This document shows positions 12,510-46,290 of a stretch of DNA of 64,000 nucleotides, piece by piece. The notes under the pieces are model-generated. The model ran no database searches and was not told where the DNA came from. It saw only the letters and a program-made list of their open reading frames with translations. The position numbers and the translations under genes are program-made. Positions within the stretch are counted from its first letter, which is position 1. Each line of letters opens with the position of its first letter. The stretch spans positions 19,716,001 to 19,780,000 of the forward strand of contig OX597825.1 of assembly GCA_951406725.2 (NCBI GenBank). The letters are read 5' to 3'. This DNA comes from Octopus vulgaris (lineage: Eukaryota).

Positions 12510-12899
12510 AACGTAAAGTATACTAGCCATCTCAATATGGCTAACCACTAAGGGTGGGTGTTACTGTAGCTTTTAGCCCCAGGAGATCATCGTCTCCAGC
12601 TGGCTTTAGGTCCGCTTTCTGTGCCCTTATGGTATTTGCAAAGGGAGGTCATCCCTCTCTCGTAAACCTAAGTGATACGTACGGACTGCAGTTTCTAGGT
12701 ATTTGCCTGTCTTCGGCGTACGGCAATCACCGGTTTTCGATGAAGGAAGACCAGTTTGCAAATATTTATTTATTGTTTTTCCGGTAACTTCCGTCACTGA
12801 TTTCGAAAAACTGTCTGCAAGCAATAATAAATCTCTGAATGAGATGTAAACAGTAACTGGTCGACAACGTAAAGTATATTAGCCATCTTAATATGGCTA
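12510..12899 (-). mobile_element. Candidate non-LTR retrozyme, copy 1 (356-bp unit plus 34-bp terminal redundancy)
   Basis: aacgtaaagtataYtagccatctYaatatggcta at 12510-12543 and 12866-12899; internal type I HHR; colinear homology with 39342-39770. Confidence 0.7.
12678..12722 (-). ncRNA. Type I hammerhead ribozyme motif
   Basis: Minus strand: CGTACG CCGAAGA cAGG caaata CCTa GAAA CTGCAG TC CGTACG. 6-bp stem I, palindromic stem/loop III, GUC cleavage triplet, one core substitution (CUGA to CCGA). Confidence 0.75.
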
Positions 12900-21427: not shown

Positions 21428-21438
21428 ATATACACAGA

Positions 21439-21966
21439 ATGAACACAATCCTCCAAACACACACGATCATAAAAAGCAAAAGACAGCCTAGATCCATGAA
21501 AAGTCTCCTTACACAAGCCCGAATTCACTCTTCAACACAGAAGCCGACAGTAAAAAAATGTGGAAGACCCAATTGCGGGATATGCGACTATCTAATTGAG
21601 GGCTCAGAGTTCTCCTTCAAACAGGGACAACGGTTTACAGTGAAAAGCAACTTTACATGTGCTTCGGAGAACTTAATATACTCACTAACCTGCTCCGGGT
21701 GTCAAGAGCAGTACATAGGCCAAACAAAAAATGGTTTGCGTAAACGAATGGCCCTGCACAGATCCCAGATAAAAATTCCCCAAAACAGAAAAATAGCTTT
21801 TAGCCAACACATAGATACTTGCGCCAACAAAAAAACACCAAACTTCAGAATTTTCCCCCTCTACCAATTTAGGGACGATACAACCTCGAGACAACGAATA
21901 AGTAAAGAAAATCTCTTTATTACAAAATACAAGCCACTTCTTAACGGGTCTACGACAAACAATTAA
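21439..21966 (+). CDS. GIY-YIG endonuclease domain of a Penelope-like element (175 aa; RT absent)
   Basis: KRQPRSMKSLL linker, CGRPNCGIC Cys motif, NLIY..CSGC..YIGQT..LRKRMALHR, FSQH, and C-terminal KENLFITKYKPLLN (Glu and Asn); no internal stops. Confidence 0.85.
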   Translation: MNTILQTHTIIKSKRQPRSMKSLLTQARIHSSTQKPTVKKCGRPNCGICDYLIEGSEFSFKQGQRFTVKSNFTCASENLIYSLTCSGCQEQYIGQTKNGLRKRMALHRSQIKIPQNRKIAFSQHIDTCANKKTPNFRIFPLYQFRDDTTSRQRISKENLFITKYKPLLNGSTTNN

Positions 21967-22089
21967 TATACCTCAACTTTAGAATAAAAGAAAAAAATAT
22001 ATATATACACACACAAATATTACACTCCATAGAATCCATTACTAATCAGCCCCTTCATAGCTAAACTTACACCCATTCATATTCTCCCT

Positions 22090-22325
22090 TCTCTGTTTTT
22101 TTCTTCTTCTTCTTCTTCCTCTTCTTCTTCATCACCATCATTATCATCATCATCGTCGTCATCATCATCACCACCATCATCACCACCATCTTCTCCTTCT
22201 CCTCCTTCTTCTTCTTCTTCTTCATCATCATCATTATCATCATCATCGTCGTCATAATCATCACCACCATCACCATCATCGTCATCTTCTCCTTCTCCTT
22301 CTTCTTCTTCTTCCTCTTCTACTTC
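22090..22325. repeat. (TTC)n/(ATC)n/(ACC)n trinucleotide block, internally duplicated
   Basis: Directly visible; lies inside the PLE 3' region. Confidence 0.9.
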
Positions 22326-22679
22326 TCCACCCCTACCCCTTAACTTTGTCACTAATGTTTTTTAGTATAACACCTACGCTAATTCTATAAACAAGCCTGT
22401 CAATATAAATATTCTCCTGAATTGAACTGAGACTGCCAGCCGCCACTGACCATTCAAAATACGACCATCAGGGCACTCCCAGATTCTCCCACCCCCTTTC
22501 CTCACCAGCCTTCTTCCTCTACTACCCGACCAAGAACTCACAACGACCTTCAACACACAAGTGCAAACAAGGGAGTCAGAGAAAGGCAGAATGCCACTTA
22601 AATCTGAACACTACTATAGAAATATTCTTTTAAAACAACTTTTCTTCTAATTTTTCTAAATTTAATTATTTAATCGTTA

Positions 22680-22717
22680 CAGTTGAAAAGGTCTCAAAAT
22701 GACCGAAACCGGTACTG
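22680..22717 (+). ncRNA. Minimal type I hammerhead motif (core variant) of the Penelope-like element
   Basis: CAG TTGAAAA GGTC tcaaaat GACC GAAA CCGG TA CTG. Stems I and II pair, palindromic CCGG loop III, GUA triplet; core TTGAAAA instead of CTGANGA. Confidence 0.65.
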
Positions 22718-22766
22718 AAATGTTCACTATAAAATTATTTTAGCATTTTCTATTTTTGACTTGTTT

Positions 22767-22818
<52 letters not shown>

Positions 22819-22852: not shown

Positions 22853-22854
<2 letters not shown>

Positions 22855-22984
22855 TTATTATATAGAAGGAGCTTCTACAGGACTAGTACTGTTTCATTCA
22901 AGAGAAATCTTCAGGAAGCTTCCTGAAGATTTCTCTTGAATGAAACAGTACTAGTCCTGTAGAAGCTCCTTCTATATAATAAAT
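22853..22984. repeat. Perfect 132-bp palindrome (centre 22918/22919)
   Basis: atttattatatagaaggagc...tcaggaag|cttcctga...gctccttctatataataaat; the arms are exact reverse complements. Confidence 0.97.
22917..22967 (+). ncRNA. Type I hammerhead ribozyme with intact core (mirror copy on - strand at 22870-22920)
   Basis: AGCTTC CTGAAGA tTTC tctt GAAt GAAA CAG tactagtc CTG TA GAAGCT. 6-bp stem I, stem III CAG/CTG, palindromic ACTAGT in loop III, GUA cleavage after 22961. Confidence 0.8.
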
Positions 22985-37249: not shown

Positions 37250-39341
37250 GCACAAACATACAGATAAACGGGGAGAAAGAAACAGAAATAGAATCTGTAA
37301 TTTGAGGTATTCAAATTAACAGCTAAAGCTGACATTTTTACGCTGATTCCTGTCACAATAATAGAAATATTTGATATTCACTAAGATATATTGAATTACC
37401 TACAATATAAGAAATATTTCTGGTTCTGTATTAATGTTTTATCTGTCCACCACGCATGTTACATCTTCCATAACACAACAATTTAGGGAATGTACCAGAA
37501 ATATTAGATTGGAAGGAGAATAAAATGTATCGGTAAGAAAATCTTATAAGGCAAAGATAATAATTTATAAAGAGATTACATCTGTTCTGTATAAAGAGTA
37601 CTTCTGTAAAACAGGAAATGCAATAAGACGTTTATTAGGGCAAGCCGTCACCTATTTTGGTTAGGTAGTGTACTTCTAGAGATTCTAGTGATTAGTTTTG
37701 TGAGAGCTATTAAACTTATTCAAACTGCTTTAAAGATTGATGATAGAATGTTAGGCTGGGAAAGATTTCAACTGATATTCAGAGAATAAAATTAATCGTC
37801 ATTCGTTATCCCGAATTTATGTTGATATTCTGTATGTAACCTCGAGTTATTTTAGTCATGTTGAATTAATATACATCCTAACTGATTAAAGATAACCAAA
37901 TGAATGTGGTGAAGGTATTGGTATTGCATAGAATGATTGAATGAAGAAAATTCACACAGGTATGCAGCATTAGTACAACATAGAATTTCCTACTTCGCTT
38001 TTGTTAGGTTTCTTACGTTAGTTCTCTTCGTTTTCGTTTCACTTAACAAAATAAGACCCCTTAGATGAGGGAGAAGATCGAAAACTAAATTGTCGAATGT
38101 CGAAAGAGACGACATTTTATCAAACAGAGCACAGCTGTTTCTCACGTTACATGATAATACAAAGTCACACAGTATTAATTGATACGCTTAGAAAAATTCG
38201 GTAGTGAATATTTCAGAGTCTACATGAAAATATGCCGTTTTTTTATTTTTTTTATTTCCTACTTACTGAAATAACTTTGATATTTTCGTTCGGAAGTCAT
38301 TGGGTTCAAGGAGACCAACGGAATTAAGGATTTATCTGAGGATTTTAATTCTGGATAATAAACTCTTTCATGGTGGAAGTAAAAATAATTTCTTAATCGC
38401 AGTAAAACAAGATAAACTCATAACTTTAGATTGGAACTTCAGTAAGAATGCGGAGACGTATTTCTTAAAAAGTAACAGATTATGCTACGTAACTTAAAGA
38501 AAAAAAGAAAAAAAATATTTTGCCAATGGAAGAATTAATCACAGGAACGAACGTCTTTGTTTCACGTTCTTCGACAATCCCTGCCACCATCATACACAGA
38601 TACATTCTTCCCTTCTATACGCTTTTATACGTGTAAATGAATGTGTCTGTGCGTGAATCCGTGTGTGTGTGTGCGTGTGCGTGTGCGCGTTCGTATGCGC
38701 ATTCACACACAAATACAGACATATGCAGGCACAAAGGTTCATGCATGCTCACATATAAGCATACAGAATATATGTGTGTATCTATATACACGTATATGCA
38801 TGCATACATATACACATACACAAATACATAGATACATAGGGAATAGTGGATTGCGAAGCATATTACGCTGCTTATGATAGAATTCCTCGAATGGCTGCCT
38901 TCAAATCTTTTCATTCTAAAAGTGCTTTTCATACCGATATTTACGTAGTATCATTTATAGCATTAAGGGCTTCTGTTATCCAATGCTCTCAAAACTGGTC
39001 ACCTCACTTTATCTTTAATATTTATAAAATTCGCATGACGTCCACAATATAATTTAATTATATTTTAGAATACCGAAAACACTTGGCTGGCTTCATATTA
39101 GGCTTTCAAAATGTATATTGTATAAAGTTGTGTCACGAATTATTCTATTGCAGCCGTTGTTATGAAAATAGTTTTTTTTAAGTAAGAATCTGGTTTAGAA
39201 TGCTATCCAGTAACATGCAACTTGATTGGTCAGCGTTCATCTATTACGCTAATGTGAGAGTCAGATGAGAAGGTCATATAAAATCTTCTTTCTATTGACT
39301 ATGACAGATAGAATAGAAAGATATGAATAAGTGATATAACA

Positions 39342-39770
39342 ATAAGCTATATTAAATCTCTGAGCGAGAGGTAAACAGTAGCAATACGGAATCGTAACAT
39401 ATATTTGCCAACCAAGTGTGGCATCCTATACTGGACAGTGTTACTGAGGTTTATAGTCCCAGGAAGACATCCCTTCCAGCTGGCAAACGACACACATTCT
39501 GTGTCCAATTAGTATTCGCGAGGTAAGTCATCGCCCCCATCCTTAGCCTTACGTGATCCACATTGACTCGAGTTTCTTTGTGGTTACCCGTCCTCATCAT
39601 GTGTTTGATGAAAACTCACTCCACTCGCAAAATACTTTATGCATTTCCCAGTGACAAACCGTCGCTGATCTCGAAAAAGGAGATATAAGCTATATTAAAT
39701 ATCTGAGCGAGATGTAATCAGTAGCAATACGGAATCGTAACATATAATTGCTAACCATGTAGACATTCTA
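39342..39770 (-). mobile_element. Candidate non-LTR retrozyme, copy 2 (343-bp unit plus ~85-bp terminal redundancy)
   Basis: ataagctatattaaat..gtagcaatacggaatcgtaacatata repeated at 39342 and 39685; shares gtgttactg, cccagga, tccagctggc, ttctgtg, ctgatYtcgaaaaa, aaatctctga..gtaaacagta with copy 1. Confidence 0.65.
39559..39603 (-). ncRNA. Degenerate type I hammerhead motif
   Basis: Minus strand: cac ATGATGA ggacgggtaaccacaaa GAAA CTCGAG TC aatgtg; same position in the unit as the copy 1 HHR; palindromic loop III. Confidence 0.55.
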
Positions 39771-40850
39771 CAATATTAATTTATACGAAAAGAGAATCGT
39801 GTCTTACACATGTTTTTATAGTTTGTTCCGCAGTGGTTTGTAATTTTTGGTAAACGAGTTTTGCTGGTCCAGAGTAGAGCCCTAAAATGGATTGAAGGGA
39901 AAGACAAGGAAGTTGCATTCCGTGTATGTATCCACTTGTTCACAAACTGAAATATGTCTTGTTTCGGGATCCGGTATTTTTTGACGATAAATCATCCTAA
40001 AGTGAATTTTATTTATCGAATATCGTCTTCATTGCATCGATTGCATTTTATAACAACGGACAGAATGGACATAATTCGTGACATAGTTCCATACACTATA
40101 CACTTTCGAAAATGTAATGAGAAATCGGTCAAGTTTATTCCTATATATTAAAATACAATTAAATTCTAATTGATTCTAATATATTCTGTCTGTACTATCA
40201 AATTCGTCTATGTGTATGTGTGTGAATGTATGTTTATATATATATATATACACATACATACATATTTAAAGGGTGTGATCGCGAGAGAGATTTATGAGAG
40301 TCCGTGTTTACTTGCGAGTGCCAAATTTCAAATAATTCTCGTACCAATTTTTCTCTGCTTAAATTTCTTTCTGTCAATTCGGCGCACAGCTTTCTCTTGC
40401 GATATTCGACTTTTACTGTGACGGCGGAGGCGCATAAGATTTCCCATTCGCATTTTTTCATATATATATATTAATCTCCGGATATTTATTTCTGTCTGTT
40501 CGTGCTTTTATATCTGTTGTAGATGTGATTTAAAAACTAAACGAGTTACGTGTACGCGGATCTACTGTAAATGACATTCCGAAGATGGCCACCTTGTCAT
40601 ATTTTAAAACTGGCTGCGTATAACATATAGGAAATCTCACCATTGTTGCTATAGAGAACAGTCACATAACCTTTCTTCCATTACGTTTTATGTGTGTGTG
40701 TTTTTGTGTATATATATATATATATATATGTATGTATATAATATATACATATAAATACTAATGTGATGTTAATTTACATATATACATAGAAGCATATATA
40801 TATACATATATATATACATATATATACATATATACACATATACACATATA

Positions 40851-45844: not shown

Positions 45845-46290
45845 TGTGTGTGTGTTTGTGTGTCTGTGTTTGTCCCCCTAGCATTGCTTGACAACCGATG
45901 CTGGTGTGATTATGTCCCCGTTACTTAGCGGTTCGGCAAAAGAGACCGATAGAATAAGTACTGAGCTTACGAAAGAATAAGTCCCGCGGTCGAGTTGCTC
46001 GATTAAAGGCGGTGCACCAGCATGGCCGCAGTCAAATGACTGAAACAAGTAAAAGAGTAAAGAGTTTGTGTGTCTGTGTTTGTCCCCCTAGCATTGCTTG
46101 ACAACCGATGCTGGTGTGTTTATGTCCCCGTTACTTAGCGGTTCGGCAAAAGAGACCGATAGAATAAGTACTGGGCTTACAAAAGAATAAGTCCCGGGGT
46201 CGATTTGGTCGACTAAAGGCGGTGCTCCAGCATGGCCACAGTCAAATGACTGAAACAAGTAAAAGAGTAAAAGTGTAAAGAGTAAAAGAG
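45622..46290 (+). mobile_element. SINE family A, young copy with tandem duplication of its 3' half
   Basis: Head ggcgcaggagtggctgtgtggtaa; the segment gtttgtgtgtctgtgtttgtccccc..gaaacaagtaaaagag occurs at 45854 and again at 46064. Confidence 0.92.

Follow-up and report, generated by a model that had tools for sequence, protein, structure and literature searches.

Copies of a hammerhead retrozyme family in Octopus vulgaris, including an old truncated one, end at two sites where a Penelope-type enzyme likely starts, probably on a small RNA circle

Two related repeats in one stretch of Octopus vulgaris DNA end at different points of a common unit, which raises the question of how such copies are made. 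In the window, by which we mean the whole 64,000-nucleotide stretch that was analysed, copy 1 lies near 12.5 kb and copy 2 at positions 39342-39770. The earlier note took the pair for circular permutations of a retrozyme, with variable start points such as reverse transcription around a circular RNA would produce, and regarded the palindromic loop III of both as a sign of selection on dimeric ribozyme function.

Copy 2 does consist of a 343-bp unit with terminal redundancy that is colinear with copy 1. A local alignment of the two holds 240 identities over 358 aligned positions and scores 83, compared with a mean of 11.4 and a maximum of 18 for 500 shuffles; elsewhere in the window no 500-nt stretch scores above 23. 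The identification of the element as a retrozyme also stands, but it reads from right to left, since the hammerhead words lie on the minus strand (GAAAC-TGCA-GTC at 12695>12684 in copy 1, GAAAC-TCGA-GTC at 39576>39565 in copy 2), so that what had been called a start is the RNA 3′ end. The features are as follows.

12510-12899, minus strand: copy 1, of the younger TGCA-loop subfamily S1, about 1.1 units, RNA-sense 3′ end at 12510
12678-12722, minus strand: type I hammerhead of copy 1, predicted cut after 12684
12820-12865, minus strand: tail sequence, here internal; the block named in the earlier note
39339-39344, repeated at 39770-39775, strand not given: ACAATA, possible remnant of a target duplication
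39345-39769, minus strand: copy 2, of the old TCGA-loop subfamily S2, about 1.2 units, 5′-truncated
39345-39390, minus strand: 46-nt tail between the two fixed ends (+175 to +220), with its second-pass copy at 39688-39733
39559-39603, minus strand: decayed type I hammerhead of copy 2, predicted cut after 39565
39685-39770, minus strand: second pass over element sequence (terminal redundancy)

The direct repeat of copy 2 pairs 39342-39428 with 39685-39770 at a period of 343; it is firm over 39345-39413 against 39688-39756 (64/69 identical) and weaker out to 39770. The family's fixed end falls at 39345, versus the 39342 given previously, and this RNA-sense 3′ end lies at +220 after the predicted cut, in the tailed class. 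The RNA-sense 5′ end is uncertain, at about 39757 to 39769. In copy 1 the redundancy is 34 bp (12510-12543 and 12866-12899, period 356), and the RNA-sense 3′ end is at +174, in the tailless class. The ends of the two copies are thus offset by 46 nt, close to the roughly 45 bp noted before, and the intervening 46 nt are identical at 34 positions. Copy 1 has the named block in its interior (from 12820), whereas in copy 2 it lies within the terminal repeat, and the redundancy is, as proposed, element sequence and not a target-site duplication (TSD). An exact 6-bp ACAATA flanks copy 2; this is under the 7-bp threshold set against chance matches and is not significant alone.

Copy 2 is single-armed, having no inverted partner arm, and is 81% identical to a natural S2 tandem and 62-68% identical to other subfamilies. 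In its hammerhead, stem I (CACATG/AATGTG) carries a mismatch at 1.1-2.1, the core (ATGAGGA) has lost C3, and stem II (CGGG/CAAA) is broken. The hammerhead does not form in the minimum free energy fold of copy 2, and Rfam models recognized a hammerhead neither in copy 2 nor in an S2 copy that is intact. Because C3, the 1.1-2.1 pair and stem II are gone and no hammerhead folds, the ribozyme of copy 2 is likely dead. That of copy 1 reads CGTACG / CCGAAGA (a U4C variant) / CAGG..CCTA / GAAAC-TGCA-GTC / CGTACG. Taken alone, copy 2 is an ordinary fossil: the decayed remains of a small mobile repeat that encodes no protein. Six subfamily queries found no other family members in the window, whose repeat listing is dominated by microsatellites; the 150 matches listed of 287 from an Rfam scan of the whole window are miRNA models on microsatellites or hairpins.

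Searches of the 2.8-Gb genome returned 2,586 first-look candidates for copy 2 and 3,026 for copy 1, and a 19-letter hammerhead pattern has 5,208 exact matches, versus 18 for the reversed control. The family is dispersed in thousands of copies over many contigs, with a unit of 343-360 bp, runs that reach about 10 units and tandem arrays of similar size. The best matches of copy 2 (S2) are 78-85% identical to it and those of copy 1 (S1) 92-97%; S2 is an old subfamily and S1 a younger one. Representatives of five loop-defined groups are 57-91% alike, and the main loop III types (TCGA, TGCA, CTAG, CATG and TATA) are all palindromic. In total 377 loci were fetched, some places twice and 65 of them Penelope-type element (PLE) loci; the samples below are best-scoring subsets (the best 40 per DNA search) or first matches on one contig. 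The family is non-coding, as judged from long copies, which wrap into their own unit and enter no reverse transcriptase (RT) ORF, and from tblastn with one PLE ORF. One S1 monomer unit is strongly self-paired (z −5.21, with 0/100 shuffles as stable). Four contig sets presumed to be RNA cover the unit, the contigs being uninformative on strand, ends and circles.

The family joins the animal non-LTR retrozymes as a new member; this group was defined by Cervera and de la Pena (2020, PMC7229834), who named PLEs as candidate movers. As described there, it has a non-coding unit within 150-450 bp, low GC, monomers to multimers in dispersed positions, one type I hammerhead per unit with a short helix III and a palindromic loop, thousands of copies, and co-existing PLEs; mussel retrozyme units, at 350-390 bp, are of similar size. 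A likeness to plant LTR retrozymes, which are also non-autonomous hammerhead retroelements thought to spread via circular RNA (PMC7229834), is limited to that. Plant elements are described with a type III hammerhead, true LTRs, PBS/PPT, a 4-bp TSD and a Gypsy partner, none of which occurs here: the topology is type I, the redundancy is variable and the TSD mode is 12 bp.

The core, stems I-III and covariation of the type I hammerhead are all found at the family level. In 24 hand-picked sequences, whose relatedness inflates the covariation counts, 98.6% of stem I and 87.5% of its extension are paired, and 3/6 pairs of stem I show double changes; double changes occur in loop III as well. Positions 3-8 are C-G in 14, U-G in 5 and U-A in 4 of these sequences, and 10.1-11.1 is unpaired in 18/24, a mismatch at the helix II base that one published axolotl retrozyme family shares. 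U4C recurs in several lineages (S1, CATG and a TCGA lineage), the youngest among them. Given these U4C cores and the mismatch at 10.1-11.1 in most sequences, ribozyme activity is uncertain. Separately, one S1 lineage acquired a UUGACAA core with G10.1-C11.1, accompanied by linked changes, and core variants were noted at three S1 loci (L163, L164 and L188) and in the CTAG and TATA lineages.

Loop III is palindromic in 89 of the first 100 listed pattern matches, from one contig and with tandem units counted singly (manual counts: CATG 37, TCGA 20, TGCA 12, TATA 11, CTAG 8, CCGG 1). The suggestion that palindromy is selected therefore holds for the lineages and not for copy 2 itself, whose core and stems have decayed. 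Likewise, the difference between CTGCAG and CTCGAG is real, but it distinguishes two subfamilies (70/77 versus 34/60 hammerheads) and does not reflect selection on copy 2. Selection acts on the source lineages.

If reverse transcription started anywhere on an RNA circle, as the earlier note proposed, the copies should be dispersed circular permutations. Copies longer than one unit are indeed common and cross the cleavage site. Their RNA-sense 3′ ends, however, are fixed at 174 and 220 nt after that site, 46 nt apart, in every subfamily examined. In S1, 164/191 segments end at 168-178 (93) or 214-226 (71), which together are 24/354 positions; duplicates were removed from this count, as were one array running off its locus (L188-L190) and L084, a twin of L056. 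The two-site pattern is seen in every query set, including central and 3′-region queries, which favour neither end. In S2, 25/30 loci found with a central query, copy 2 among them, end at 163-178 (15) or 214-228 (10), and both ends were recognized by eye in four further subfamilies (CTAG, CATG, TATA and a second TCGA one). The two copies in the window are simply one of each end.

The 5′ ends behave differently. Over 147 S1 segments they are flat, at about 0.0094 stops per nt, with 4 versus 7.7 expected within 10 nt of the cut site, 10 versus 8.9 at one start site (A) and 8 versus 8.3 at the other (B); among copies chosen by their 3′ region, 21/29 cross the cut site. Three stopping points for the RT were considered, namely the cleavage site, the other start site and the completion of one turn, and all are rejected by this flat rate. 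With 3′ ends at two fixed sites and 5′ ends flat, the prediction of dispersed permutations fails, and priming anywhere on the circle, refuted by the end distribution, is scarcely tenable. A minor end at +204 accounts for 4/191 segments (L049, L050, L044 and L185); two of these, L049 and L050, have in common both the +204 end and a 5′ end at +172, within different flanks.

Many copies adjoin an inverted, 5′-truncated arm. Among 51 inverted S1 pairs, 33 combine a +174 with a +220 end (A/B), none are A/A or B/B, and 18 have an unclassified end, such that all 33 classifiable pairs have one end of each kind; the dropped twin L084 read 220/220, and the second arm of L035 is ambiguous, its end being read as 213 in one analysis and 171 in another. 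The 20 inverted S2 pairs include 8 A/B and no same-class pair, and in the pattern and CTAG samples 15/16 pairs are A/B by eye, counting those in which each arm has an identifiable hammerhead. Outside (AT)n, inverted insertions have a TSD of at least 7 bp in 29/42 cases (null mean 1.6), of which 23 are 11-13 bp long. Simple single-armed insertions have a TSD of at least 7 bp in 8/52 cases (null 1.0). The A/B pairing and the TSDs around inverted insertions indicate that the two arms arise in one event. Arms also share non-consensus variants (70/336, versus a shuffle null of 0.066), and those of two inverted insertions (L035, and L056 with its twin) differ in core type. Ends fall in (TA)n in 48/167 cases, and flanks have an AT content of 0.88 versus 0.63. 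As a side observation, L056 and L084 have one head-to-head junction between two core types, with different flanks and outer ends, which suggests re-copying of a two-armed insertion. In the window, perfect 66-bp inverted arms between (TA)n tracts at 22853-22984, the source of an Rfam mir-3199 match, resemble a two-armed insertion, very short, of a different repeat.

Target-primed insertion by a PLE accounts for this pattern of two sites, inverted arms and TSDs of 11-13 bp, and the local tandem duplication that the earlier note had named as its own alternative does not take the place of its reading. In published work, a PLE protein cleaves AT-rich target DNA on both strands and extends each of them; copying begins at two sites inside the RNA, and the segment that separates these becomes the genomic tail (Frangieh et al. 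2024, PMC11167929). PLE insertions are described as having TSDs of 8-10 bp, arms that are inverted and truncated, and a tail on only one of their ends (Craig et al. 2021, PMC8557442; Arkhipova et al. 2013, PMC3846280), and antisense self-priming has been proposed for head-to-head junctions (PMC3846280). As in those accounts, the octopus copies show two fixed ends downstream of a hammerhead, a tail on one end only, head-to-head arms, AT-rich or microsatellite targets, a TSD of about 10 bp and random 5′ truncation. Unlike PLEs as described, they have no ORF, the whole element is the repeat unit, and the hammerhead has canonical size where theirs is minimal. At 46 nt the tail exceeds the 30-40 bp published for PLEs, and the sites lie 174 and 220 nt after the cut, whereas in the anole element the AC-rich site lies at about 85-92 nt (PMC11167929). 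It is likely because a Penelope-type RT-endonuclease starts copying at these two sites that the copies end there.

PLEs might also be related to the family in another way, the copies being solo pLTRs, that is, 3′ ends detached from an autonomous PLE, whose redundancy arose later by local duplication. PLE pLTRs carry type I hammerheads (PMC4209133), and Xenopus retrozymes are reported to resemble pLTRs (bioRxiv 10.64898/2026.07.22.740005). Yet the long octopus copies wrap into their own unit and never into an ORF, the redundant length varies freely, and an RT plus GIY-YIG ORF between pLTRs, the feature of an autonomous PLE, is absent in the retrozyme copies examined. With tblastn and one PLE ORF, a PLE fragment was found near only 1/121 loci among L001-L121 (L107) and near none of L157-L186; L107 was considered as a pLTR joined to a PLE RT and rejected, since microsatellite and unrelated DNA lie between. 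We therefore regard solo pLTRs as very improbable, although the family as a whole likely originated by descent from a pLTR.

This genome harbours two young PLE families, both with intact RT-GIY-YIG ORFs, a minimal hammerhead-like motif with U3-A8, and two 3′ ends of their own about 30-40 nt apart in (TA)n targets. The first has a 466-aa ORF followed by an RT plus GIY-YIG ORF of 765 aa (781 codons between stops); the second has a 784-codon frame and a truncated copy inside the window. Searches of six retrozyme subfamily references against the 3′ regions of both families gave no significant DNA similarity, and the window copies and an S1 reference, compared with 35 GIY-YIG loci, matched only flanking retrozyme insertions. 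As neither family aligns with the retrozyme, the mover is proposed from anatomy only. In the young, roughly 4.8-kb PLE of L137-L156 (e.g., L142 620-2020 and 1987-4284), the 466-aa ORF upstream of RT-GIY-YIG has no Pfam match over the cut-off; canonical PLEs are described with a single ORF. The 784-codon family is very young, with about 145/150 scored matches 100% identical over 170 aa. Its 5′-truncated copy in the window (21436-22771, plus strand, the GIY-YIG end of the ORF) ends at its own tailless site in (TA)n, and a hammerhead-like motif with a UUGAAAA core and a palindromic ACCGGT lies near 22687-22717.

Whether the template of such an enzyme is a circle is a separate matter, on which the comparison of the two window copies gives no support to the earlier proposal; uniform multi-unit insertions elsewhere do support it, short of proof. 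Circles have already been proposed as templates for more-than-unit copies, together with the dimer rationale for a palindromic loop III (PMC4209133). In the CATG subfamily, 23 full units at 7 loci differ by 0.13 substitutions within insertions versus 7.5 between them, although polishing of the assembly could exaggerate the uniformity of tandem units. At L328, one haplotype runs through all of a single A/B head-to-head insertion, whose arms hold 9 + 3 hammerheads. The presence of several haplotypes, each fixed through its own array, points to a single-unit template that is read repeatedly. Over 65 segments, two passes share rare variants at 72/427, versus a permutation null of 0.010, and private variants are common to two passes at 7/93, versus a null of 0.003; the 355/427 rare variants not shared are read as later mutation. 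Direct runs with typed hammerheads are of one core type in 15/18 cases. The other three (L047, L053 and L195) are mixed and count against a circle, since one circle cannot give them. A fixed heterogeneous dimer as master, with pass 1 always unlike pass 2, was not seen in the allele table. Apart from these counts, L330 (G000:C1:48889500-48893300) reads A, G, A, G at one position over four successive units, as a two-unit circle or a two-unit duplication would give.

The same two-site priming could instead take place on an uncleaved linear multimer transcribed from tandem source arrays, with the hammerhead as a passenger or 5′ trimmer. The anole PLE uses uncleaved linear RNA in vitro and inserts unprocessed RNA, the hammerhead being dispensable and its mutants without effect (PMC11167929). 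The arrays of about 10 units, the lack of any pile-up of 5′ ends at one full turn, the mixed core types and the frequency of U4C cores are also consistent with a linear template. However, array-wide haplotypes at several insertions would then require repeated single-unit bottlenecks, each followed by re-expansion. In addition, multi-unit runs are commonest in the CATG lineage (7/11 of its insertions among the first 100 matches), and the palindromic loop III and 3-8 covariation are maintained across lineages. A linear multimer thus seems unlikely; given PLE-type priming, a circular template appears fairly probable on this sequence evidence.

Taken together, copy 2 is, with good likelihood, an old 5′-truncated copy of a 350-360-nt hammerhead family on which a PLE RT-endonuclease likely starts at two sites, probably on a small RNA circle. 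A source copy with two or more hammerheads would be transcribed, and the transcript would cleave itself as a dimer through the palindromic loop III and then be ligated to a circle. A PLE enzyme would cut both target strands about 12 nt apart, with one 3′-OH priming at +220 and the other at +174. Each cDNA would stop at random (about 1% per nt in S1), perhaps after circling more than once, and two cDNAs would join head to head, or one would join the target directly. Copy 2 would then stem from priming at +220, with one arm and 1.2 turns of the circle, and copy 1 from priming at +174, with 1.1 turns. In its most specific form, a single Penelope dimer would prime both strands of a 12-nt staggered cut on one RNA circle, invariably the tailed site for one strand and the tailless site for the other, and roll round it; this we hold tentatively, with slightly more doubt than confidence. 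If it is true, the PLE tail, the head-to-head arms and the retrozyme multimers are three outputs of one reaction, and the 355-nt circle is a minimal substrate for its reconstitution.

These observations bear on two open questions, namely the identity of the enzyme that mobilises animal retrozymes and the way in which the tail and the head-to-head structures of PLEs are made, and the family-level evidence sharpens this open mechanism. The available text of the animal retrozyme papers bases PLE mobilisation on common ribozymes, co-occurrence and pLTR trees, the last two added by Li, Clavereau and Pollet (bioRxiv 10.64898/2026.07.22.740005), and describes no fixed RT ends, tail or inverted arms. 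No description of this anatomy for retrozymes was found in the literature searched, chiefly the main text of freely available papers. Circular RNA and cleavage are shown for the published animal retrozymes, and the family here is known from genomic sequence. In it, a non-coding hammerhead repeat bears every element of the PLE insertion signature, and the events can be counted in their hundreds; tail and no tail are paired almost strictly, and the youngest lineage has uniform multi-turn arms. For the in vitro PLE assay that already exists, the family also offers a short defined template on which the start sites are predicted exactly.

Two minor observations concern other repeats. The window holds a two-copy 210-bp tandem at 45854-46271, 95% identical and unmatched by the retrozyme queries. 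Elsewhere in the genome, a 63-nt piece of the retrozyme (+110 to +171) sits at one fixed place inside another short multi-copy repeat and has been carried with it to several loci (L083 2580-2642, L227 2346-2408 and L251 857-919).
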